Shown here: positions 2 to 14,948 of the stretch, piece after piece | Layout of the letters: the number at the start of each line of letters is the position of its first letter | How positions within the stretch are numbered: position 1 is the stretch's first letter | NCBI GenBank assembly: GCA_963708075.1 | Contig: OY970194.1 | Span: 6,592,001-6,656,000 of the forward strand | Direction: 5' to 3' | DNA: 64,000 nt | Source of the DNA: Sedimentisphaerales bacterium | GTDB taxonomy: Bacteria > Planctomycetota > Phycisphaerae > Sedimentisphaerales > Anaerobacaceae | Position numbers and translations under genes: made by a program | The notes under the pieces: generated by a model | Database searches by the model: none | What the model was told of the DNA's origin: nothing | The model's input: only the letters and a program-made list of their open reading frames with translations

Positions 2-1093
2 CGCAAGAACCTGTCCGTCAGCGAGGCCGAGATCGATGAGATGATGAAGAGCGACCCCAAGCTCACCCGCGAGCGAGCCGGCATGCTTGTACAGCGGACC
101 AAGGGCATGGCGCTGCTGGAGCAGTTCTATAAGGATCTGCTTACGAAGTTCCATCTCAAGCAGGCGACGGAGAACCTCGCGAAAGCGTCGGAGATTCACG
201 AGCGACTGCTGCGCAATCCGGCCAAGCCACGCAAGGAACCCTGGATCTTGAACAGCCAGGCGAGGGATGAGCTGACGCAGGAGGAAAAGGCGATGGTCCT
301 GGCGGCCTACGACGGCGGCGAGGTCACCTTGCGGGACTGGATGGAGACGCTGTGCGAGATGGCTCCCCCGCGGCGGCCACAGGACCTGGCCACCGTGGAA
401 GGGGTCGAGCGCCTGCTCGATAGAACGCTCCGATCCGCGATGCTCGTGGCGGAGGCGAAGGCCCGCGGGTACGACAAGGACCCCGAATACGTGCGCGAGA
501 TCAAGGACCTCGAAGATCAGCAGATCCTCTACAAGGTCCAGAGCGACAAGATGAGGGATGTCCCTGAGCCGAACGAGGGGCAGGTTAAGGCATTCTATGA
601 GAAGAACAAGGAGTGGTTCGCCGAGGGGCCCTTCCTGAAGGTCGATCCGATCTGGTGCAAGGATTTGGCGACGGCGCGGGAGGTGAAAGAGAAGCTTGAC
701 GGTGGGGCGGACTTTCGTGCGATGAAAGACGCGCACTCGCTGCAGAAGGAGATCGAGCCCTACAGGATCTCCCGCAGCAGCGAGGGACCGCTCTGGGACG
801 AGCTGTGGAAGGGCGAGCCCAACCAGGTGGTCGGGCCCGTGAAAGGGTTCTATGAGACAGGGCTTGCATGGCGCGTTGTGAAGATCCTGGAGAAGACGCC
901 CGCTCAGGACAGGGCGTACTCCGAGCAGCTCCAAAGCATGGTCAAGGGGACGATGTTCATGGAGCAACGAAAGGCGCTCCTCGATCTCTACAGCAAAGAG
1001 CTTCGTGAGAAGTACAGCTACGAATTGTATGCGGATCGGATTCAGGGCATCGATCCTCTGGATCCGGCCCTTTACGAGCAGACAAAACAGTGA
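2..1093 (+). CDS. PpiC/SurA/PrsA-like peptidyl-prolyl isomerase/foldase (5'-truncated by window edge)
   Basis: Frame is open from position 2. SurA-like helical segment (LVAEAKARGYDKDPEY), parvulin-like region (AREVKEKLDGGADF...GEPNQVVGPV...WRVVKILEK) and C-terminal helix (KELREKY). Confidence 0.75.
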   Translation, partial: RKNLSVSEAEIDEMMKSDPKLTRERAGMLVQRTKGMALLEQFYKDLLTKFHLKQATENLAKASEIHERLLRNPAKPRKEPWILNSQARDELTQEEKAMVLAAYDGGEVTLRDWMETLCEMAPPRRPQDLATVEGVERLLDRTLRSAMLVAEAKARGYDKDPEYVREIKDLEDQQILYKVQSDKMRDVPEPNEGQVKAFYEKNKEWFAEGPFLKVDPIWCKDLATAREVKEKLDGGADFRAMKDAHSLQKEIEPYRISRSSEGPLWDELWKGEPNQVVGPVKGFYETGLAWRVVKILEKTPAQDRAYSEQLQSMVKGTMFMEQRKALLDLYSKELREKYSYELYADRIQGIDPLDPALYEQTKQ

Positions 1094-1159
1094 CCCTCGT
1101 GCCGAGCAGTGCCCTGGGACCACTGCCATAAACGGATTGTAGCAGGGACGGTTCTGGGT

Positions 1160-2756
1160 ATGGTCTTCACGCTGCAACGATACATATTTCGAGAGCTGTT
1201 CAAAATCTTCCTGTTGGCGACGATCGCGCTGACGCTGATTTTGAGCCTCGGCGGGATCCTGCGGCCGGTTCAGGAGTACGGGGTGGGCCTGCAGCAGGTC
1301 CTGCATATCCTGCTCTACTTCATGCCGATCACGCTGACGTTCGTCCTGCCGATGGCGGCGCTGTTCGCCTCGGCGCTGGCCTACGGCCGCTTCGCCAGCG
1401 ACAACGAGCTGGACGCCTGCCGGGCCAGCGGAATCGGGGTTTCCACGCTCGTGTATCCGGGGCTGACCCTGGCCGTTCTCGTGGCGATCGCGAATCTGCT
1501 GTTGAGTTTTCACGTCATGCCGTACTTCGTCCGGCTCGCCGAGCGGTCGTTGAAGGCGGATGCCAAGCAGATCCTTTTCCGCAACATTCAGCGGCACGGG
1601 TACTACAGCCTGCCGCCCGATGAGCGGTACCTCATCTACGCGGATTATGCCGATGCGAAGACCGATACTCTCTACGGCATCGTCGTGATTGAGTCGTCGC
1701 AGGAGGGGCTCAAGCGGATCATCACCTGTGAGTCCGCCCAGGTATACTTCAACCCCCATGACAGGTTCAACGAGGTCCAGTTGACCGCGCAACACGAGGC
1801 AATTGGGCGGCCTCGACGACATGTGGTTTGAGATCGAGGCGGCGTCGTTCCGGCAGGAGTTCGGTTCGCTCCTGGGCGATGATATCAAATTCAAGAAGAT
1901 CGATGAGATGAAGCAGATCCGCGTCAATCCGCTGCTATTCGATCCCGTGGCGAAGACAGCCCATGAGCTGTATATGCAGCTTGCAGCGGAACTGCTGTCG
2001 CAGGACATACAGGCGAGATTGGCCACGTCTCCTGCCGCCTTCTACGAGCTCGAAGGGAAATCGCAGAGGGTCCGGCTCTCCGCGATGGGATGCGTCCTGG
2101 AGGACGAGCCGGCCGTGTCGCTGCGGCCCCCGGTGACCGTGGAGGAGTATGCAAAGCAGGGCGACAAGCCGCCTCGAAAGTTCCTCAGTGAGAAGGCCAT
2201 CCTCTACCTCGACGACACCACGCCGGACCTGCAGGTCCACCTGCAACTTTCCAGCGCCGAGGTCATCGGGACGGGGCAGTCAGTGATCCATCATGCCGCC
2301 GGCGGCCTCGCCATGCCGGAATCCATCAGGCAGGCTCTCCGCCGGACGCAGGCCGGAGGGTTGAGACTCGGGGGAGATTTGAGTTCTGTGCTGCAAGGTC
2401 CGCCGAGTCCGAAGCTCGCGGGCCTCCAGGCAATATTGGAGCGGCAAATCCGCGGGACGCTGGTCGATATCACGGGCGAGATCCACTCGCGGCTGGTCTT
2501 TGGCGTCGGTTGCATTCCGATGATTCTCATCGGAATTGGCTTGGGAATCCTCAAGCGGGGTGGACACCTGCTCAGCGCATTCGGCGCCAGTTGCGTGCCC
2601 GGCGCCGTATTGATCGTGGCGATCATCAGCGGCAGGCAGGTCGCAGGGAACACCCGTTGGGCCGAGGCCACGCCCGGGATCCTCATCATGTGGGCCGGCC
2701 TGGCGTTCCTGCTGCTTCTGGCCGCCATCATCTACTCCCGGCTCCTGCGACATTAG
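1160..2756 (+). CDS. LptF/LptG family LPS export permease (frameshift at ~1790)
   Basis: [10 protein letters not shown]-terminus, [29 protein letters not shown] motif, three C-terminal TM helices after EIHSRL. ORFs 1109-1831 and 1803-2756 join into one protein. Confidence 0.85.
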
Positions 2757-4069
2757 GTGTCGGCACGCTGTTTGATGGCCTGGCGGACCTCGCGGTTGAT
2801 GCGGGCGCTGCACCAGTGCTGGCCGCACATGGAGCAGTAGTCGGCCGAATGCAGCTCCGATGCGCCCATTTCCTCGCACGCCTCGCGATGCATCCGGTCG
2901 GCGGTCTTCGGGTCGAGGGACTCCCCGAAATGCGTCTGCCAGTCGAGGTTGCTCCGGGCCGTGCTCAGCCTCCTGTCGCGTTCATCCGCGCCCTTGAGGC
3001 CGCGGGCGATATCCGCCGCATGGGCGGCGATCCGGGCGGCGACAACGCCGGCCCGTACGTCCTCGGCGTTCGGCAATCCGAGGTGTTCCCGGGGTGTGAC
3101 GTAGCACAGGAAGGAGGCTCCGTAGAATGCCGCCGCGCAGCCGCCAATGGCGGACGTGATGTGATCGTAGCCGGGTGCGATGTCCGTCACCAGGGGACCG
3201 AGCACGTAGAAGGGGGCCCCGTGGCAGATCTCCTGCTGGAGCTCCATATTGCGCTGAATCTGATTGAACGGCACATGGCCGGGACCTTCCACCATGACCT
3301 GGCAGCCGCGTTCCTGTGCCCTCTGGGTCAGCTCGCCCAGCGTCCGCAACTCGGCGAGCTGCGCCTCGTCGGTGGCGTCGGCGATGGCGCCGGGACGCAG
3401 GCCGTCGCCGAGAGAGAAACACACATCGTATTCGACCATGATGTCGCACAGGTCGTCGAACAGCTCGTACACGGGATTCTGCTTATTGTGATGGAGCATC
3501 CACTTGGCCAGCAGGGCGCCGCCCCGGCTGACGATGCCGGCGACGCGCTTCTCGATCAGCGGCAGGTGCTCCCTCAGCACACCGGCGTGGATCGTAAAGA
3601 AATCGACCCCTTGCTTCGCCTGCTTTTCAATCGTCCGCAGGATGATGTCGTTGTCGATGTCTTCGACGTTCCTGCCCTCGATCACCTGATAGATCGGGAC
3701 GGTGCCGAAGGGGACCGGGCAATGCGCAAGCAGCTCGCTGCGGATTTCGTCAAGATTGCCACCGGTGCTGAGGTCCATCACCGCATCGGCCCCGACCTCC
3801 AGCGCCGCCTCCAGCTTCTCGATCTCGGCGGCCACGGAAGAGCGGACGCTGCTTGTCCCGATATTGGCATTGACCTTCGTCCTGAGCGCTCTGCCGATCC
3901 CCGCCGGCTTGAGATTGGTCTTCAGGTGGAGTCCGTTGGCCGGGATCACCAGCCGTCCCGCCGCCACCTCCGCCCGGATGAGCTCGGCATCCACCGCCTC
4001 GTCCCGCGCCACAGCCTGCATGGCCTGCGTGATCTTTCCGGCTCGAGCGTGCTCCAGTTGCGTCGTCAT
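2753..4069 (-). CDS. thiC: Phosphomethylpyrimidine synthase ThiC (short form)
   Basis: [58 protein letters not shown] and C-terminal CSMCGQHWC Fe-S motif. Upstream TPP riboswitch. Confidence 0.97.
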
Positions 4070-4093
4070 GATTCTACACTCCTCGTTGCCAAT

Positions 4094-4120
4094 AAAAAAA
4101 TCGCTCCCGCAGGAAGCGAT
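4094..4120 (-). terminator. Intrinsic terminator; expression platform of the TPP riboswitch
   Basis: Minus strand ATCGCTTCC-TGC-GGGAGCGAT followed by a T run, between the aptamer and the thiC RBS. Confidence 0.85.
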
Positions 4121-4149
4121 TCGCCAACTCTCGATGCCTCGTTTGTCGC

Positions 4150-4277
4150 ATCGCTTTCCTACGCAGGCCTTCTCGCCCCCGCATCCGAGTTTCGGATGCG
4201 ATCCATGGAGCGATTATCCCGATCAGGTTCAAAGGGTTTTGTCTCAGACCCGCCTCACAGCAGGCCACCCCTAGCGA
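4150..4277 (-). ncRNA. TPP riboswitch (THI box) with 44-nt insertion in L5
   Basis: Minus strand TCGCT-AGGGGTG...CTGAGA...ACCCTTTGAACCTGATCGGGATAAT[44 nt]GCCTGCGTAGGAA-AGCGA. P1 TCGCT/AGCGA, P5 CGGG/CCTG. Lies directly upstream of thiC. Confidence 0.92.
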
Positions 4278-4285
4278 CCAAATCC

Positions 4286-4313
4286 ATTATACCGGACCGG
4301 CGGTACCGTTCAA
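4286..4313 (-). promoter_or_regulatory. Sigma70-type promoter for riboswitch-thiC
   Basis: Minus strand TTGAAC-16 nt-TATAAT; the predicted start site falls at the 5' end of P1. Confidence 0.65.
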
Positions 4314-4339
4314 GCAATTCTTCCCGATCTGAACGCCAT

Positions 4340-4533
4340 GTGTGCGACTACATTTTGTGGGGAAGGAGGCTCATTCTGTCATCCCGAGCCCATTCGACTA
4401 CGCTCAGGGCAGGCTGCGCGAGGGATCTGGCCGAGATTGCACGGTGCGCCTTTGCGATGCCAGATGTCTCGGCTACGCTGCGCTTCGCTCGACATGACAA
4501 ACGGGGGCTTCACCACGAAAATTAGTCGCACAC
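4340..4533. mobile_element. MITE-like element, copy A (194 bp), 8-bp TSD AACGCCAT
   Basis: TIRs GTGTGCGACTACATTTTGTGGGGAAG / CTTCACCACGAAAATTAGTCGCACAC (22/26 match). AACGCCAT at 4332-4339 and 4534-4541. Confidence 0.9.
4377..4499. repeat. TGTC/CGTC-type REP doublet with a nested second palindromic element (~4390-4415)
   Basis: TGTCATCCCGAGC...GCGAGGGATCTGGC and inverted partner GCCAGATGTCTCG...GCTCGACATGACA. Left arm is interrupted by CCATTCGACTACGCTCAGGGCAGGCT. Confidence 0.75.
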
Positions 4534-4577
4534 AACGCCATGTGCAGGAGCGTGCAGGAGAAACCTGAGCTTTCCAT

Positions 4578-4606
4578 TTGATCTCTCCGGAGCTTCGGGC
4601 TACAAT
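4578..4606 (+). promoter_or_regulatory. Putative sigma70 promoter of the TIR-CHAT gene
   Basis: TTGATC-17 nt-TACAAT; GGAGG RBS at 4686-4690 before ATG 4701. Confidence 0.5.
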
Positions 4607-4700
4607 AAGGTCGATAGAAGCGGCGTGCGGCACGGGTGAGACAGTGCCGGCGAGTTTCCATCTGTTATTGCGGGCCAGATGTCTTGGAGGTCATGGAAGA

Positions 4701-7700
4701 ATGCGCGACGGTCGCAACGCCGCTGTGTTCATCAGTCATGCCAGCGCCGACGATGAATTCGTAAAGCAATTGCGAGAATCGCTCGAAGCCCACCATATAC
4801 CCGTTTGGGTGGACTCCCGCGGCCTGCGGGGCGGCAGCAAGCTCGCGCCGGAGATCGCGCAGGCCATCGGCAACGCCCGACACTTCATCGCTGTGCTCGG
4901 CCCAGAAACCGTGAACTCACGATGGGTTCGCCGGGAGATCGAGCGGGGGCTATTGGTCGAAAAGCGGCGCAAAGCCGACGGCTATCGCGTCATTCCGCTC
5001 CTGCTCCCCGGCCTTGAGCCCGCCGCCCTGGAAGCCTGGTTCGATGAGGAGCCGACAGGCATTTCAGTTGGGACCGGCCCGGACGGCCTTTCCGCGGCCA
5101 TGCCTGACATCCTCGCTGCTCTGGGGGAACGCCTGCCCACCGGCAGCCAAATGGCTGCCCAGGCCGATGGCAAGCCGCTGGCGGAGCTCGTCCTCACGCT
5201 CGCGGACGCGAAGATCGAGACTCAGGAAGGCAAAAGGCGTGCCAGTGCCGTCGCTATGCTCACCTATGAGCCGGCTGACTCCGCTGTCAAGGGCATCGAG
5301 AGCCGCCGCTTCGCGTTCACCGCGCCGCTCGGGCCCATTGAGGCCGACGACCTGCGATGGTACCTGGAGCAGTATTTCCTCTGGCCGGTCGGCGTGTTCG
5401 AGAACCCGCGCTAAGGGCATTGAGAAGAAGTTGCCGCAATGGGGTAACGATCTCTTCCAAGCTGTGCTGGGCATCGACACCGCTCGCGAGGCGTTCTCCG
5501 CCTGGCAACATGCCGCCGACGGTGCCGAACGGCGCTTCTCAGTGCAGGTGAACAGTGATCTGCCCGACGGCGCGCCCGCCGAAGCCCAAGCCGCCGCGCG
5601 TGAGGCGGCGACTGAGCTTCTCTCCCTTCCGTGGGAGCTTCTGCACGATGGTCACGACTGGCTCTTCCAGGGAGCGCATCCTGCTCGGGTTCGCCGTCGT
5701 CTGCCAAGCCGTCAGGAACAGAAGGCACGTCCTGCAACCCTGCCCATCCGCATCCTGCTCGTCAGCCCGCGTCCGGAGCATGATGGCAAAGGCAACGACA
5801 TCGGTTATATCGACCACCGTATCAGCGCCCGGCCGCTGGTCGATGCGGTGGAAAGCCTCGGCGAGTTGGCGAAGCTCACGATTCTCACGCCGCCCACCTA
5901 CGCTGCACTGGATGAGGCCCTGCAGGCCGCCGCCGACCGCAATGAGCCGTTCGATGTCGTCCACTTCGACGGCCACGGAGTCTATGACCGTCACCTTGGC
6001 TTGGGCGGATTGTGCTTTGAAGATGCCAAAGACGCCGGCTTGCCGGAAAAGCGTCAGATGGAGTTCGTCGACGCTGTCAAACTGGGCGGTCTGTTCCGTC
6101 AACACCGCGTCCCGTTGGTGTTCCTGGAGGCCTGCCAGACGGCGGTGGCCGAGGTGGACCCGACGACCTCCGTGGCCGCGAGGCTGCTTGAAGAAGGTGT
6201 CACGTCCGTCGTGGCAATGAGCCACAGCGTGCTGGTCGAGACGGCCAGACGATTCGTGCAGGCATTCTATAAGTCATTGGCACAAGGTGCCCGCGTGGGC
6301 AAGGCCATGCTCGCCGGCCAGCGAGCGCTCTTCGATGACACCTGGCGCGGCAAGATCATGGGCGCGGGCGACCTGCGATTGCAGGACTGGTTTGTGCCCG
6401 TCGTCTACCAGGAGAAGCACGACCCGCAACTCATCACGAGAACTCCGGCAAGGGAGGTGCGCCAGCTCGAAGCCAGGAGGCGAAGGCTCAGCCTCGGCGC
6501 GCTGCCGGAAGAGCCGCCACACAGGTTCCAGGGGCGCAGCCATGAGCTGCTCGCCCTCGAACGGCTCCTGCACGACGAGCCCTGGGCCGTCGTGCGTGGT
6601 ACCGGTGGCTCGGGCAAGACTACGCTTGCCGCCGAGTTGGCCCGCTGGCTCACTCGCACAGGACGCTTTGCGCGGGCCGCCTTCGTGAGCCTCGAACACC
6701 ACCGCGACGCGCGTGCCGTGCTCGACACCCTCGGCCATCAACTCCTGCCCGACGGCGACAAATACTCTGTAGCCCAGTTCCCGAGCTTTGACAAAGCCCT
6801 TCAACCCGTAGAGCGGGCACTGGCGGACCACGCCACCATTATCGTCCTGGACAACTGCGAGAGCATCCTGGATGCAGGCGACGCCCTCACGGCGTTGCTC
6901 GACCTGTGCAAGCGGCTCCTCGACGCGGACCCAAGGATCCGCCTCGTCTTCACCATGCGTGAGCCGCTGCCCGCACCGTTCGACCACGCAGGCCGCCAGC
7001 GGGAACTGGGCGACTTGGCCCGCCCCGACGCCATCGAGCTGGTGGGCAAGGTAATGAAACAGAACGGTTGGACGCCGCCCGCCACCGACCCGGGCGGCAC
7101 GCCGCAGGAGATCACCGACTTGGTGGAGGCGGTGCACTGCCATGCCCGCGCCCTGGTGCTCCTGGCGGGCGAGGTGGCCCGTCGTGGCGTGAAGGCCACC
7201 ACCGCCAATCTCCGCGCTCTCATGGCCGAGTTGGAGCGCAAACACCCTGGCGACCGCGAAAACTCACTCTACGCCAGCGTCGAACTCTCCCTCCGTCGCC
7301 TCTCCCCCGAATCGCGCCAGCACGTTAAGGTGCTCGGCGTCTGCCAGGGTGGAGCATGTCTTCCCATTCTCGCGCACCTCACAGGCTTGGAAGTAGACGC
7401 TGCTCGCCAACTGGCCATTGAACTGATCGACGTCGGCTTAGCCGAAGACATGGGCTATGCCCACCTGCGCCTGGACCCCGGCCTGCCGCCATATCTGCTA
7501 GGCGAGTTGACTGGTGACGAAGCTATCGCCACACGCGCCAAGTGGGCCGAGGCCATGGCCCAACTCACCGTCTACCTCTACGAGGAGCAGTTCAAAGATG
7601 CCCAACTCGCCGCGCAACTGACGCTGCTGGAGTTGCCTAACCTCCTTGCGATGCTGGAGTGGGTTTCGGCCTCCGACTGGCCGGCGGAAAGCGTCGTAGG

Positions 7701-9069
7701 TCTGGCCGACAGCGTGGAAAGGCTAGTCGCCAACCTAGGCCAGCCCCAAGCTCTGGCCGTGGCCACGCGCGTGCGCGAACAAGCCGCTCGGAAACTGGGC
7801 GACTGGAGCCACGCCCGTTTCCTGACCGGGTCTTCCAACATTGACCGGCTGCTGGAACGCGGCGACCTGCCGGCCGCGCACGAGTGCGCCCAGCAACTCC
7901 TCGCAAAGTGCCGTGCCGCCGGTGAGGCTGCCTATCCTGAAGCGGCTTACGATCTCGCATCGGCATTTATCCGGCTCGGGCGAGCGTTAGGGTATAGTGG
8001 AGCGGCTGAAGCCGCATTGGAGCCGCTGGCGGAAGCACAGCGCCGATTCCAGCAACTGGCAAATGCCGGCGATGCTGACGCCGAGCAGGTGGCCTCGGCT
8101 GCCATCACCGAGACTGGCGACTGCCTGCGCAACTTGGGCCGGTTGGATGAAGCCGCCGCCGCATATGAAAAGGCTATCGAGCTCGACCAAGCAGGCAATC
8201 GCATGAGGGATGTTGCTGCTGGTAAGGGTCAACTTGGCACCGTGCGGATGTTGCAGAAACGCTACGCTGAGGCGCTCAAGGCTCACGCCGAAGCACGCGA
8301 CACCTTCGAAGCATTGGGGGAACCGCAAAATGTGGGCGCAATGTGGCACCAGATCGGGATGGTACATGAGAGCACTCACCGATTGGAGCTCGCTGAGCAG
8401 GCCTATCGCCAAGGTTTAGCCATTTTTGTGCGAGAGAACGATGCCCCACACCAAGGTATGAGTCTTGGCCAACTGGGCAGTCTCTACGACGCGATGGGCC
8501 GGTTGGAGGAAGCGGTCACGTTCTATCGGCAGGCCATTGGCGTTCGTGCGCGGCTGAAAGACCTTGCTGGCGAAGGGAGAACCCGCAGCAACTTGGCTGA
8601 CACGCTGACCAAGTTGCTGCGCTACGACGAGGCCCGGCAGGAACTCCAACGGGCGATTGAGTGCAAGAAACCTTACGGCCACGCCGCCGAACCGTGGAAG
8701 GCATGGTCACATCTCGAAGACCTCGAGCGCGCCACCAACCACGGTGAAGCCGCTGCTGCGGCCCGGGAACAGGCGATCCAGACCTATCTGGCCTATCGTC
8801 GCGCCGGCGGCGTTAGCCAGAGCTCTCGCGCCCGACTCTTCGACCTCGTCTCCCAAGCGATCAAGGAGAACGCTCCTGCGGAGGCCCGCCAACTTCTGTC
8901 CCAGCTTGCTTCGCGTCCCGACTTACCTCACTTCGCGAAAGCGTTGATCGCGGAACTCCAGTCGGTGCTCGTCGGCGAACGCGATCCTGCCCTTGCCGCT
9001 GACCCCGAACTCACTCCAAGGGACGCTGCTGAACTTCAACTGCTCCTGGAGAAGCTGCCGCTTGGGTGA
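4701..9069 (+). CDS. TIR-CHAT(caspase-like)-STAND NTPase-TPR protein, ~1455 aa when joined (extra base at ~5400)
   Basis: TIR: VFISHASADD...SRWVRRE. CHAT dyad: VVHFDGHG and FLEACQT. Walker A GTGGSGKTT, Walker B IIVLDNCE. C-terminal TPRs (GRLDEAAAAYEKAI, GRLEEAVTFYRQAI). ORFs 4578-5414 and 5014-9069 join at ...WPVGVF/RTRAKG. Confidence 0.88.
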
Positions 9070-9084
9070 TCCGACGATTTTGTC

Positions 9085-11094
9085 TCACAGGATGCCGTTG
9101 ACGCTGGTGAAGAGGGTTTCGAATCTTTCGAAGGCTTCGTCGGCGCCGGGCAGTTTCTGGATTTTTCTGTGGTTGCTGCGGAACAGGAATTCGGCCGGGA
9201 TCATCGGGTCGAAGTTGACGGGTTTCACCTGGCCGGTGGCGAAGGCACTGTGCACGATCTTCAGGACAGGCTCGTCGGTGACGGCGGCCACCGTGCGCGA
9301 CAGCCTGTGCCTGCGAGGCAATCCAAAGGATTGGTCCGTCAGTGCCAGGTACATTCGCGGGCCGATCAGGTCCTCGACCGTGCTCGTGGCCGGTTCGGCG
9401 TACTTGTGCAGCGGGAAGACGTGGCACCGTTCGAGCATGCGGGAGACCTCTCGATGCTCGGTGATCTCCGGGCGAACCTCGGAAAGACTCAGCAGCACGG
9501 CAAAGCCCGAAGCGTCGTTGGCCAGCAGACCCGCCAGGGTCGCCAGCCGGACGAGATCGCCGCACGGGACGATGGTCCAGGCCGGGTGCAGACCGGTCCT
9601 GCCTCGCTCGTTCAGGCGCGCGGAGAACCACTGGAGGTACAGCACATCCGCGGGCTTTTCCACCAGCAGCAGTTTCTTCGCCGCCGTCAGGTCCTGCATG
9701 ATCCGATATCCCAGCGACGCCTGAAGCGGCAGCAGGGTGTCATGGTCCATGCTGAGGACTTCATCGCCCACCTTTGTGCCCAGATACTCCAGCCTGCCGT
9801 CCGGCGTCTGCCGAGTCACCTCCTCAACTGTGCGAACCCACTGCATCCTCTCCGGATCGATCATGAACGGAGAGTGCGTCGCGTAAAGCACCTGGTACTG
9901 AGAGACCAGTCGCTCGCGGATGTATCGAAGCAGGTCCCACTGCGCCTTGGCGTGCAGGCCGAGCCCGGGATCATCCAGGAGGATGATGAGGTTGTCGCCG
10001 TAACGCCTGCGGACGCCGGCGTACCAGACCAGGAAGGAGAAGAACCAGACGAACCCGGTGCTGCGCTCCGAAAAGTTGAGGGACAGATCGGTTCTCGTAT
10101 TGACGATGCGGGTCTCGAAGACCAGCCCGCGGTCCATGGGCGACGGATCGCCCGGGCGGGCGGGGTAGAGATGGAAGCTGACCCTCAGGTCCCGCTCCTG
10201 ACTCCAGTACTTGGCGATCTCGACGGTGATGGGCCGGGCGGCGTCTTCCAGGTCCGCGATGAGCTCCTCCGACCGCTCGATACTGGTCAGTGCCTCCACC
10301 GAGGTGCCCCCGAGTTCCAGCAGCGCGAGGAAGACCCGGTCCGGGCCCGTGAGGTCGCCCTTCTTTCGTCTCTCCAGCAGCGCATCGATCGAGATGCGTC
10401 CATCCATAATGTGCCATTCGGAGAAGTACAGGAGCTTGGGCAGCAGCGCTCCCACGTGCTGCTCAAAGCATGCATTGTCGGCAGGAACAGGGTCGGCAGG
10501 CGGCGTCGGCATTGTCCGCGACGGGCTCTCGATGGAGCTTCGCTCCTCCTCGACTTCCGGCGTCTCCGTCTCCTTGGCAACATCCTGGATCTGTCTCAGA
10601 CTCCTCACAGCCTCCTCCAACATCCGAGAGCGATCGTCCAGATCGTCCGCGGTCTGCGCCGGCTGCGGGTCATGCGGCACATTCATCGATCGGCTGACGG
10701 ATGCGTTCATCGCTGTGAGCGAGCCGGTCCATCGGCGCCCGGGATAGTACCCTTTCTCTACGACTATGGTGCGGGATTTGACCGCGCCGGGGCCGAGGAT
10801 GCTCTCCAGCTTCTCGACATCCTTGTCCTCCAGCTCCCACGTGGTGATCAGGGCATCATCCGGCTCGCGATTGGGCTGCTTCTGATACTCGCGGCGGCGG
10901 GCCCGCGGATACTCCATCAGGACGTCGAAATTGGCCAGTTCATCGACATCCGGATTCAGCTTATAGAGTGCTTCCAGAAGCGAGGTCTTGCCGGCGCCGT
11001 TCTTGCCGACAAAGGCCGTTACCGGGCTGACGCTGAATTCCGTGGAATCCTCGATACAACGAAAGTTCTTGACTTGCATCCGTCGCAGCTTCAT
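9085..11094 (-). CDS. OLD-family-like ABC/AAA ATPase with degenerate TOPRIM region
   Basis: MKLRRMQVKNFRCIED, Walker A GKNGAGKTS, signature-like ERSTGFVWFFSF, Walker B LLDDP, H-loop ATHSPF, TOPRIM-like LLVEKPAD. Confidence 0.8.
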   Translation of the reverse strand: MKLRRMQVKNFRCIEDSTEFSVSPVTAFVGKNGAGKTSLLEALYKLNPDVDELANFDVLMEYPRARRREYQKQPNREPDDALITTWELEDKDVEKLESILGPGAVKSRTIVVEKGYYPGRRWTGSLTAMNASVSRSMNVPHDPQPAQTADDLDDRSRMLEEAVRSLRQIQDVAKETETPEVEEERSSIESPSRTMPTPPADPVPADNACFEQHVGALLPKLLYFSEWHIMDGRISIDALLERRKKGDLTGPDRVFLALLELGGTSVEALTSIERSEELIADLEDAARPITVEIAKYWSQERDLRVSFHLYPARPGDPSPMDRGLVFETRIVNTRTDLSLNFSERSTGFVWFFSFLVWYAGVRRRYGDNLIILLDDPGLGLHAKAQWDLLRYIRERLVSQYQVLYATHSPFMIDPERMQWVRTVEEVTRQTPDGRLEYLGTKVGDEVLSMDHDTLLPLQASLGYRIMQDLTAAKKLLLVEKPADVLYLQWFSARLNERGRTGLHPAWTIVPCGDLVRLATLAGLLANDASGFAVLLSLSEVRPEITEHREVSRMLERCHVFPLHKYAEPATSTVEDLIGPRMYLALTDQSFGLPRRHRLSRTVAAVTDEPVLKIVHSAFATGQVKPVNFDPMIPAEFLFRSNHRKIQKLPGADEAFERFETLFTSVNGIL

Positions 11095-11286
11095 GACTGC
11101 ATTCCTCCACTGAGGTGTATATTCGCCTTTCGCCCCAGCCGACTTGCCAATCGTTCGCTATCCTAACAGGGGCTTCCGCATCCGTCAAATGCATGTCATT
11201 CATATTTTACTCTATAGCGCCCGGATGACGGTGAAATCCGGGTGGCGAATGGGATGAAGTCAGCCGGTGATCGACGAACGCGGCGC

Positions 11287-12345
11287 CTACTGACCCTCGA
11301 ACGAGTGCTGATCGGCCACGTTCAGCCCGGCCAACTCGGCCATGGCTTCCCATGTCAGGGCCGGACTATCGCTCTCTTTGTGATCGGCTGTCATATGCGT
11401 GGGGATACACAGCACTTCCATTTCCATGCCCGCGGGGCTCTCGATGTCCGCGCCGTCGGCCGGGAGGCACGTGAGATAGAAAGTAGTATCGTGGGTCGTG
11501 CCTTGCGGATCTTTGTGTGTCAGTCTTACGGCCAGCTCATCGTCCTGCTCGACGATCTCGACCTGTGCCGGCTCACCTGGCCCCGTATCGCTCATCTTTT
11601 CGAGCCATTCGCCGAGCGACAGACCCAGGAGAGTGATCTGTCCATCGAGCTCTCTCGCCAGTTGCCGGTTTCGGAATTCCTCAAGCTCGTCCGATTCGCT
11701 CTGCTTGTCTTGAAACGGCGGCAGGGGTGCGATTCCGGGCAGGCCGGACTGCGTCTTGACCAGCACCGCGCCGTCCCGGAAAACGACGCAGATGTGCGAG
11801 TCGTCCGGATTGGCCCAAACGTACACCTGGTTCGCCGCCCCATCAAAATAGGAACTGCTGAGCTGTTCGCCCTGCGCGCCGAGAAGGTCGGCCACTTGGC
11901 GATAGGTCATGCCTTTTTGAATCTGAGTGTACATGGAGCTCGTGAAGGTCAGGTCCGCGGCAGGAGGCGTCTGAGGGGCTTCGGCCTCCTGCGACGCCGT
12001 GGTATCGACAGCGTTCGCGTCAGGCGCGGGCACGTCGTCAGGGGATTGGCCGGCGGGTTGGACCGGCGGCTTCAGCCTGGTAAACGTGTACGCAATATCC
12101 TGACCCGAGACTCGGACTTCAATGCTGCTTTGTATGCCGTTCAGCAGCAGGGCGAATCCTTCGTAGGTTCCATCCGCCCTTTCCATCAGCATCACGGACC
12201 GGCAGCAGTCGTACATGCGCTCATTGATGTGAGCTTTGACGCGCTCCTGCAACTCGGTTCTGCTGATGCCTTGTGCACAGGATGTATTGGCTCCGAGCCA
12301 GCCAACCAACGCTAACGCCATTGCGGTATACATGGGTCTACGCAT
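11287..12345 (-). CDS. Secreted protein with DUF3862/BLIP-like (SmpA/BamE-like) domain
   Basis: Signal peptide; YTQIQKGMTYRQVADLLG...VYVWAN...VVFRDGAVLVKTQSGL. Confidence 0.6.
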   Translation of the reverse strand: MRRPMYTAMALALVGWLGANTSCAQGISRTELQERVKAHINERMYDCCRSVMLMERADGTYEGFALLLNGIQSSIEVRVSGQDIAYTFTRLKPPVQPAGQSPDDVPAPDANAVDTTASQEAEAPQTPPAADLTFTSSMYTQIQKGMTYRQVADLLGAQGEQLSSSYFDGAANQVYVWANPDDSHICVVFRDGAVLVKTQSGLPGIAPLPPFQDKQSESDELEEFRNRQLARELDGQITLLGLSLGEWLEKMSDTGPGEPAQVEIVEQDDELAVRLTHKDPQGTTHDTTFYLTCLPADGADIESPAGMEMEVLCIPTHMTADHKESDSPALTWEAMAELAGLNVADQHSFEGQ

Positions 12346-12504
12346 AGCACGTCATCCTATAACAAGTGAAATCATCCTGTCAGTTGCTGAATGGACCCCA
12401 TTATACCATCGGCCGACCTGTTCTTGTCTCGCAAGTGCATCGCTGGTATAGTGGCGCTATATTCCTCGTTCTTGTAGGCCGCAAATGCAAAGGAGGTTCA
12501 GATC

Positions 12505-13761: not shown

Positions 13762-14948
13762 TCAGGCAGTGCCGGGGTTCTCGTGGGTCGATCCGCCGCG
13801 GTGGGCGGCGTGCTTGCCGTAACGGTCGCGGATCTTGTCCACGACCTGGTCGAGGCGCTTGAGCTTCTCCTGTTCGGGGTCGCGAAAGAGCAGTTGCTGG
13901 CCGGCCTGCTCCGGCGTCAGGCCGGATACGCCGAAGCCAAGCAGACGCAGCGGACCGCCGGAGCGGGCGTGCCATTGGCGAAAGACGTGCTCCGCCGTTG
14001 CCCACAGGGTCTTGGTGACGTTTGTCGCCTCGCTCAAGGTATCGCTGCGCGTCACCGTGCGGAAGTCGCCATACCGCAGCTTCAGTGTGACCGTCCGAGC
14101 CTTGAGTCTCTCCTGGCGCAGCGCTGCGCGACCTCCTCCACCTGTTCAAGCAGCACGGCCAGCAGTATCGCCGCATCGCTGATGTCCGTCGCGAACGTCT
14201 GTTCGCTCGACAGGCTCTTGCACTGGCGGTCCGGCTCGACGTCCCTGTCGTCCTCGCCCCGGGCCAGCCGCTGCAGGTCGTCGGCTCCGTTGCCGACGAT
14301 CCTCTGGAGTTCCTCCAGGCTGCTTTGGCGAAGTTGGCCGATCGTGTGAATGCCGTGTGATTTCAGGGCCTTCTCCGTAACCTGGCCGACGCCCCAGATC
14401 TTGCCGACCGCAAGCGGATCGAGAATCTGCTGCTTGTTCTGTTCCGTAATCACCACGAAGCCATCGGGTTTCTTCAGGTCCGACGCCAGCTTGGCGAGGA
14501 ACTTGTTCGGCGCGATCCCGACCGAGGCGGTCAGATGCGTCTGCTCGAGGATTTCCTTTTTGATGGCTCGGCCGATTGTCTCTGTGCTGCCGAAGAGATC
14601 GGTGCTGTCGGTGACGTCGAGAAAGGCCTCATCGAGCGAGATCGGCTCCACGAGGGGCGTGTACTTCTCGAAGATCGCGCGGATGATATGCGAGACCTCC
14701 GCGTACCGGTCCATCCGGACGGGCAGCAGGACGGCATGGGGACAACATCGGATCGCCTGGGCCGTCGGCATGGCGCTGTGGACACCGAACTTGCGGGCCT
14801 CGTAGGACGCGGCGCTGACCACGCCCCGGCTGCGCGCGTCGCCGCCCACGATGACGGCTTTGCCCTTGAGCTCCGGGTGGTCGTGCTGCTCCACCGAAGC
14901 GTAAAACGCGTCCATATCGACGTGAATGATCTCACGGGCCTTGCTCAT
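13762..14948 (-). CDS. dinB: DNA polymerase IV (frameshift at ~14120)
   Basis: IIHVDMDAFYASVEQ, SAASYEARKFGVHSAM, SLDEAFLD, NKFLAKLASD. Little-finger domain TVTLKLRYGDF...LRLLGFGVS continues in the shifted frame. Confidence 0.95.

Follow-up and report, generated by a model that had tools for sequence, protein, structure and literature searches.

A candidate one-chain NLR-like receptor with a TIR domain, a separase-type protease and a diversifying TPR sensor in a Sedimentisphaerales bacterium

Does the gene at positions 4701-9069 of a 64,000-nucleotide stretch of a Sedimentisphaerales bacterium (hereafter the window; contig OY970194.1 of assembly GCA_963708075.1) encode an intact immune receptor, and if so, how would its two enzymes work together? 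An earlier sequence-only reading had recognised a TIR domain, a CHAT protease, a STAND NTPase and tetratricopeptide repeats (TPRs) in one chain, and all four were found in order on the plus strand. In this study, the gene, the predicted folds of its product, its homologues and their neighbourhoods were examined together with the literature, where statements on cited papers refer to the passages of each that were covered. We consider it probable that the product is an NLR-like receptor, encoded by a single gene, that serves immunity or cell suicide: its separase-type protease would be constant, its TIR NADase dispensable and its sensor diversifying, and the two enzymatic outputs would run in parallel. 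The architecture, the conserved catalytic residues, the folds, the patchy spread and the sensor variation on which this explanation draws were observed in the present analysis. The NLR-like architecture noted earlier is confirmed, and the diversifying sensor, the patchy spread and the swapping of effectors with conflict domains speak for a role in immunity or conflict; the expectation that fared less well is the genomic one, as the homologues lie mostly outside defence islands.

Reading frame and domains of the receptor

In the assembly a +1 frameshift divides the gene: the TIR frame runs into a stop codon at 5412-5414, and Pfam places TIR_2 in a 237-aa frame (4701-5411) and the CHAT, AAA_16/NB-ARC and TPR families in a 1220-aa frame (from 5407), one base out of step with each other. 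Contigs of public sequencing runs were compared over window positions 1000-12400, where run X1 has no coverage at 5403. A 382-base contig of run X2, covering 5101-5483, has one base fewer at 5403 and is otherwise letter-identical, although this is one contig of depth 3.2 and X2 is possibly the source sample itself. In run X3, a relative's contig of 5.5 kb, about 88% alike, likewise lacks the base. With the base removed, residues 1-966 are open and align without gaps to the intact 1454-aa homologue P0002 (744/966 identical, 77%). One contig of 7.5 Mb makes up the source assembly. Of 40 of its genes that were compared with their counterparts in relatives, 5 are broken across frames, among them the receptor gene. 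The indel suspected earlier near 5400 is thus borne out, and the gene is most likely intact and would encode a 1455-aa protein, the apparent break being a sequencing error. Programmed frameshifting at 5403 was rejected because both the near-identical and the related DNA are without the base. That the copy is a genuine pseudogene, broken at 5403, is highly improbable: the frameshift is there in the assembly, broken copies exist among the homologues (e.g. L003, L015 and L044) and this copy departs from the consensus at 8 of 283 conserved columns (median 4), but the X2 contig lacks the base, 4 of the 39 other matched genes of the assembly are split too, and Glu79, His425, Cys478 and the P-loop Lys639 are all present in the window copy. 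Upstream, GGAGG stands at 4686-4690, ten bases ahead of the ATG, and a search for sigma-70-like promoters found three sites against 0.2 expected.

The 1455-aa product is ordered as TIR, pseudo-protease, CHAT protease, NB-ARC, helical domain 1 (HD1) with winged-helix domain (WHD) and arm, TPR and helical cap (Table 1). AlphaFold models were obtained for residues 1-900 of P0002 (predicted local distance difference test, pLDDT, 88.9; predicted template modelling score, pTM, 0.89) and for residues 594-1455 of the window protein (pLDDT 92.1, pTM 0.86). The predicted TIR fold is nearest to the SPARTA TIR-APAZ NADases (8ifl; Z 17.3, root-mean-square deviation (rmsd) 2.2, 135 residues aligned). Modelled residues 159-578 match the complete protease region of human separase (Z 20.7, rmsd 4.2, 316 aligned) and Csx29 (Z 20.2, rmsd 4.1, 313 aligned), and the part that Pfam mostly leaves blank, residues 159-340, is therefore the pseudo-protease half; this assignment and membership of a family of thousands were absent from the sequence-only reading. 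The CHAT domain fits SAVED-CHAT 8tl0 (Z 18.3, rmsd 1.9, 194 aligned), and a weak HetF match lies over the protease (E 4.6e-4). Both parts of a separase-type clan CD protease, a pseudo-protease and an active domain with a His/Cys dyad, are thus found, and so are those of a tripartite STAND/NLR-like protein: a P-loop nucleotide-binding domain (NBD) with Walker A and B motifs, HD1 and a winged helix, with N-terminal effectors and a C-terminal repeat sensor on one chain.

The NBD carries Walker A Lys639 (6616-6618), Walker B Asp717 (6850-6852) and Arg753. The best folds for the NTPase model are ZAR1 (Z 20.0), CED-4 (Z 19.0) and Apaf-1, and the profile scores agree, with NB-ARC at 28.5 bits (over its cut-off of 23.5) and NACHT at 18 bits (under its cut-off of 26.7). 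The top Foldseek match of the C-terminal model is the archaeal STAND-TPR protein 6mfv, and the TPRs resemble the peptide-binding repeats of the LGN/Pins type. Among solved structures no relative was found beyond single domains, and the ESM Atlas returned only automatically named clusters of identical architecture.

Table 1. Window coordinates of the receptor gene, its parts and associated sites
Feature	Residues	Positions	Strand	Basis
Sigma-70-like promoter match, putative		4578..4606	+	9/12 consensus positions; consensus match only
Whole gene		4701..9069	+	1455 aa without extra base at 5403; length and domain order as in intact homologues (~1450-1470 aa)
TIR domain	9-145	4725..5135	+	Pfam TIR_2, E 4.6e-23; Glu79 at 4935-4937
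TIR-protease linker	146-158	5136..5174	+	highest variability along the chain (mean entropy 2.21 bits)
Pseudo-protease half of separase/Csx29-type protease	159-340	5175..5721	+	mostly without Pfam family
Extra base		5403..5403	+	absent from X2 and X3 contigs; most likely assembly error
Active CHAT protease domain	341-578	5722..6435	+	CHAT, E 2.8e-23; His425 at 5974-5976, Cys478 at 6133-6135
Protease-NTPase linker helix	582-597	6445..6492	+	predicted dock of TIR alphaA/alphaE (modelled on homologue P0002)
NB-ARC/AP-ATPase-type STAND module (NBD, HD1, WHD, arm)		6502..7806	+	Pfam AAA_16/NB-ARC; fold matches
TPR sensor, ~7 repeats of 40-46 residues		7807..8811	+	TPR_12, E 1e-24; hypervariable concave face
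C-terminal helical cap and stop codon		8812..9069	+	predicted model

Conserved enzymes, a variable sensor and a scattered family

The window copy is an ordinary member of a large family. With the protease-NTPase region as query, 2410 proteins were retrieved at E<=1e-20 among 8000 scored, and a profile search gave 1351 representatives of 50% clusters at 1e-30. The best 120 matches to this region, the window's own excepted, are 67-85% identical and come from across phyla, most of the full-length ones bearing a TIR domain; source names of homologues comprise Acidobacteriota, Actinomycetota, Armatimonadota, Planctomycetes, KSB1, Cytophagia, Gammaproteobacteria and Litorilinea. Within genome samples the family is rare, with an orthologue in 1 of 40 relatives, members in 3 of 300 other genomes of the same phylum (five candidates scored per genome) and in 4 of 151 genomes of another class (the centre genome of that sample counted), and the carriers in these two samples have large genomes of 6-9.4 Mb. 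Such a sparse, scattered presence, taken with the high identity across phyla, implies repeated horizontal gain and loss, as we infer.

The catalytic residues, which the sequence-only reading had noticed together with the Walker A and B motifs, are located in the window copy and conserved in the homologues. Among the 119 top homologues, found with a query without the TIR domain, Glu79 is kept in 108 of the 109 that have a residue there, His425 in 118, Cys478 in 118 and Lys639 in 119. Near-complete proteins made up a broader set of 207, from which fragments had been removed and whose non-representative part was dereplicated at 95%. All 207 have the Walker A Lys; the 177 TIR-bearing members keep the TIR Glu in 176 and both His and Cys in 168, and the dyad is present in 27 of the 30 without TIR. 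Conservation of His is partly by construction, since loci L015-L094 were retrieved with a pattern that includes it.

The sensor behaves differently. Following the literature, TPR positions 2, 5, 9, 12 and 13 were taken as the ligand-binding, concave face (PMC1261162), a set chosen after the TPR consensus of the family had been viewed. Over 32 disjoint pairs more than 85% identical in the core, not all of them orthologues since paralogues were included, concave positions show differences at 623 of 1120 sites; the corresponding counts are 361 of 1344 for the outer helix and 2147 of 21933 for the core, and the concave face is the more variable one in 32/32 pairs. A control TPR protein found in 24/24 genomes of the genus shows the reverse (73/450 concave, 168/480 outer; concave more variable in 1 of 10 pairs), this control being a single core TPR family of which 21 of 24 sequences were full-length and used. 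In the eight close pairs with DNA, the ratio of nonsynonymous to synonymous polymorphism (pN/pS) is 0.78 for the concave face, 0.33 for the outer face and 0.16 for CHAT, with a range of 0.16-0.24 over TIR, pseudo-protease, CHAT and NBD; because the concave value stays below 1, it falls short of demonstrating positive selection. The paralogues L007 and L008 differ at 1 of 231 codons in CHAT and at 24 of 35 on the concave face. The family would thus change its ligand quickly while its enzymes stay fixed, judging from these comparisons, and a conserved-ligand reading drawn from the TPR consensus was overturned by the pair analysis.

Several further members and relatives were recorded. The source genome holds a second intact copy of 1509 aa on its contig C1 (4466263-4470801, minus strand; L125 11263-15789), 51% identical and distant on the tree, which sits between guaB and a signal peptidase gene with FRG, ORF6N and DUF2442 genes nearby. 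An 1813-aa member (L118 1857-7295, minus strand) has about 500 residues without Pfam match in place of the TIR domain, and in L120 (8246-12613) and L093 a member has been inserted just ahead of the rpsL-rpsG-fusA-tuf operon. A sister family with the same pseudo-protease motif, made up of more distant CHAT-STAND proteins without TIR (L097, L099 and L101; 34-38% identical), occurs in two genomes of the genus. The source genome also has two STAND-TPR-like proteins (C1:4921324-4923927, minus, and C1:7503191-7506280, plus), one with TIR and one with near-identical 42-residue repeats, as well as a cluster of TIR, MoxR ATPase, large TIR protein and CHAT protein at about C1 2602000-2615000 (L126 4178-16966), which looks like a MoxR ternary conflict system.

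How the two effectors may act, and what else the receptor might be

On a tree of the core (FastTree, midpoint-rooted, with no formal clade test), TIR-less proteins are dispersed among TIR-bearing clades. In six of them the first TIR strand is fused directly to the protease with differing breakpoints, one of the six being seen in two sources, and three others (P0196, P0209 and P0220; mutual identity 48-50%) form a TIR-less clade with support 1.0. The family-wide count of 30 is an upper one, since some are gene-calling artefacts; P0090, for example, is a short gene call of P0272. Exchanges were also noticed: TIR-less P0238 has a C-terminal PNP domain, a domain described as an immune ATP nucleosidase in other NLR-like proteins (10.1101/2023.01.24.525353); P0165 is fused to AAA_35; and P0020 has a different N-terminus, its first 270 residues without Pfam match, with Ser in place of the catalytic Cys. 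The earlier view of two intact-looking effectors in tandem holds, both active sites being conserved. Its further suggestion, self-cleavage that releases or licenses the TIR, is disfavoured by the dyad of the TIR-less lineages and by a TIR-protease linker with no invariant Arg or Lys. Repeated loss or exchange of the TIR with retention of the protease favours parallel effectors over self-cleavage, since the protease would have a job without the TIR.

A model of the resting state comes from a complex prediction in which the TIR of P0002 and the rest of P0002 were entered as separate chains. The docking score was 0.66 against 0.00 for the best control, runs agreed in 100% of contacts and partner pLDDT was at least 79; the docking mark is attained by 116 of 157 solved pairs and by 2 of 215 mismatched ones, figures that apply only approximately to the alignment used. 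The predicted contacts join TIR residues 26-35 and 126-138 (the end of alphaA and helix alphaE) to linker helix 582-597 and NBD residues 683-685. Because this dock covers the alphaA/alphaE interface, which plant TIRs need for signalling (PMC12856790), the prediction supports a model in which the resting receptor hides the self-association face of its TIR on the protease-NTPase linker and the NBD. The predicted interface residues are slightly less conserved in TIR-less members (Leu589 66% versus 29%, others little changed), which is weak support at best.

From such a resting state, and by analogy with Avs, Apaf-1 and plant TIR-NLRs, a foreign protein would bind the TPR groove, nucleotide exchange would open the NB-ARC module and the protomers would oligomerise; the clustered TIRs would then hydrolyse nicotinamide adenine dinucleotide (NAD+) and the separase-type protease would cut cellular proteins, so that the cell dies or stalls. 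Of the two effectors, only the protease would be constant; the TIR, although common, would be dispensable. The trigger is most likely a variable protein of a phage or other mobile element.

Serial wiring within one chain would explain the same parts in another way. The TIR could make a cyclic ADP-ribose-type signal that activates the protease, as in type IV Thoeris, in which a TIR works in series with a caspase-like protease (10.1101/2024.10.24.620036), or the protease could cut the linker and free the TIR. The two catalytic centres do occur together in 167 of the 207 homologues, the segment that tethers the TIR is the most variable of the whole chain, and linker Asp148 is 81% conserved, but the window copy has Gly at 148, the TIR-less forms of several clades keep their dyad (27 of at most 30, the supported clade of three and the six direct fusions included among the TIR-less forms), and the TIR fold is nearest to SPARTA TIRs, which deplete NAD. 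We regard serial wiring as quite unlikely.

Two other explanations keep the receptor and change what it senses. A suicide receptor for non-self or kin recognition, triggered by proteins of rival or non-kin bacteria instead of phages, as in fungal het NLRs, would agree with the hypervariable groove, with a solitary gene amid housekeeping genes, with the large genomes of the carriers and with paralogues such as L007 and L008 that pair a near-identical protease with different sensors, and such a role has been proposed for related systems in PMC10907252. It is unlikely, as near-identical internal repeats of the fungal het type are not found in the TPR sensor, whose repeat consensus differs unit by unit, and the characterised bacterial STAND receptors in the literature covered all sense phage infection. 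A regulatory or developmental signalling protease resembling HetF or EACC2-caspase proteins, its STAND switch answering a host signal and its TIR serving as adaptor, has the HetF match and the lack of defence context in its favour; non-defence STAND clades are also interspersed with defence clades (PMC13581612), and STAND domains and ECF sigma factors accompany EACC2-caspase proteins (PMC8195603). We hold it to be improbable nonetheless: carriers are rare and scattered, no neighbour or sigma factor is conserved, different genes occupy the site upstream of thiC in the relatives compared, the catalytic Glu of the TIR is kept, and a groove that binds a host ligand would be expected to stay conserved, as that of the control TPR protein does.

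Against the receptor reading that we prefer stand several results, to which the built-in share of His conservation, the single control, the concave pN/pS below 1 and the eight departures from consensus have to be added. A conserved operon partner was sought in 94 loci, and no neighbour family occurred in more than four, ABC permeases being the most frequent (4/94). The homologue neighbourhoods, whose survey had been put forward earlier as a check, were scanned with PADLOC at 1e-15 over 420 open reading frames (ORFs) within 5 kb at 80 loci (seven near-duplicates dropped; many flanks short). No match among the neighbours was obtained at 63 of the 80 loci, and 18 loci had a match if one locus with its own split TIR is counted; the others comprise six with generic domains, one with a reverse transcriptase, one with a TIR gene, five with small candidate genes only, two candidate clusters (L044 and L045) and two with components of tested systems, namely Shedu (L064) and PD-Lambda-3 (L080). 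Enrichment beside defence genes is not shown, because 2/80 is not clearly above the null rate of 1.53% given in PMC13581612, a rate obtained with another tool. The window is itself no defence island (PADLOC, 0 of 38 other ORFs at 1e-15), the plasmid and phage collections gave no match to the family, and no PADLOC or NCBIfam model fits the whole protein beyond single-domain matches, with none at 1e-15 for intact P0002; PADLOC 2.0 dates from 2023 and is without Avs7-24. Neither an experiment on any family member nor a paper on this architecture was found in the literature covered, which excludes subscription papers and large supplements; the clade tables of PMC13581612 may already list the family.

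Around the receptor gene, as the sequence-only reading had stated, no gasdermin-like or other partner gene was seen, nor did PADLOC find one among the 420 neighbours, the rest of the genome not having been searched for gasdermin. A 669-aa AAA_15/AAA_21 ATPase (9085-11094, minus strand) converges on the receptor gene and gave the sole defence-like matches in the window, to AriA and Old-like models in PADLOC; its C-terminal part appears TOPRIM-like with a degenerate motif. Its orthologues occur in 2 of 23 genomes of the genus. It is syntenic in one X3 contig, but it was not counted as a partner because in G007 it lies on a separate contig and G005 has it without the receptor. On the other side stands thiC, present in 21/23 members of the genus, with a thiamine pyrophosphate riboswitch ahead of it (4139-4282, minus strand), and the genes upstream of thiC vary among the relatives compared. 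A repeat resembling repetitive extragenic palindromes (4366-4505) lies between thiC and the receptor gene, with six weaker copies elsewhere in the genome and a high contig depth in other runs. Further off, lptF (1109-2756) is split where relatives have one ORF of 532-538 aa, probably through an assembly indel, as is probable also for dinB (13762-14948), which appears split; lptG, next to lptF in relatives, is absent here and has a match near C1:6885000 that is also split. At homologue loci, neighbours with TIR, TIR-FGE, DUF4062 or Schlafen domains occur at L010, L063, L119 and L121, and in L010 (7821-9314) a gene with three TIR domains abuts the receptor gene on the same strand. Toxin-antitoxin neighbours were common among 69 hand-picked ORFs and, having no background rate, were not used as evidence.

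Known systems and what the family may offer

The closest likeness is to the TIR-NLR of E. coli P4 hotspots (Rousset et al. 2022, PMC9122126) and to Avs/AVAST (PMC13581612), which share the single gene, the N-terminal effector (a TIR with catalytic Glu, exchangeable with others), the STAND NTPase and the TPR sensor; a tested single-gene TIR-STAND-TPR protein protects against phage (PMC9122126). Unlike these, the receptor has a 420-residue separase-type protease between TIR and NTPase, its family matches no Avs or TIR-NLR model of PADLOC, and it was unseen in phages and plasmids and seldom lies in defence islands. For its effector criterion PMC13581612 asks for an effector domain in at least 50% of the proteins, and by this rule the family would probably be included. 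With Apaf-1/CED-4 apoptosomes and the plant resistosomes RPP1, ROQ1 and ZAR1 it has in common the NB-ARC fold (Z 17-20) and a nucleotide-dependent switch combined with either a TIR at the N-terminus or a linked cysteine protease, but it has TPRs rather than WD40 or LRR repeats and joins TIR and protease, of the separase type, in one chain; PMC13581612 mentions bacterial orthologues of Apaf-1 to which a caspase-like protease is fused.

The protease itself resembles those of Csx29 (TPR-CHAT, Craspase), SAVED-CHAT, Borvo and separase in its pseudo-protease and active fold with His/Cys dyad (Z 18-21), though it stands under a STAND switch and not under Cas7-11 or cyclic oligoadenylate, with no Csx30, PCaspase or gasdermin gene seen adjoining, and the receptor is neither a Borvo nor a type III-E CHAT system as these are described in PMC10952713. 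In type IV Thoeris (10.1101/2024.10.24.620036), too, a TIR belongs to one defence unit with a cysteine protease of clan CD, but there two genes are linked by N7-cyclic ADP-ribose (N7-cADPR) and have no STAND module, whereas here one chain has an NB-ARC and its protease persists without TIR. With NACHT below the cut-off, the receptor is not a member of bNACHT as described in 10.1101/2022.07.19.500537. NB-ARC-TPR proteins with an N-terminal TIR or CHAT, as in the receptor, were recorded among the all-in-one NLR-like proteins of multicellular bacteria (10.1101/2020.01.06.895854; also PMC10907252). EACC2-caspase proteins (PMC8195603) have an alpha+beta domain before the caspase domain, and in the predicted model an alpha+beta domain also precedes the receptor's protease, but no EACC2 profile matched, and the TRADD-N or ECF sigma neighbours of EACC2-caspase proteins do not recur beside the receptor homologues (94 loci). 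STAND-GT4 proteins with TIR and caspase effectors are mentioned in these surveys. The surveys 10.1101/2020.01.06.895854 and PMC8195603 are computational, and a fixed TIR-CHAT-NB-ARC-TPR family or variation of its sensor is not in the passages covered; a survey of TIR signalling discarded stand-alone and Avs TIRs (10.64898/2025.12.03.692087).

A bolder form of the receptor reading, which we put forward as doubtful, is that of a mobile one-chain apoptosome built around the separase-type protease. Its TPR groove would track variable ligands, such as fast-evolving phage accessory proteins or proteins of rivals and non-kin, and not core phage folds, and its protease-NTPase linker would restrain the TIR until both enzymes are set free by oligomerisation. 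What caspase-like proteases do in Avs proteins is described as unknown in 10.1101/2024.10.24.620036. Cultured carriers are known, Actinoplanes octamycinicus and Paractinoplanes durhamensis, and tests are therefore practical. If the receptor reading is right, a single switch would govern both NAD destruction and proteolysis in a large family of environmental bacteria. The receptor would provide a simple system for studying how NLR oligomerisation switches on separase-type proteases and for asking what a stand-alone CHAT protease cuts, and it would allow a test of whether bacterial NLRs outside defence islands track variable ligands in the manner of plant and fungal NLRs.

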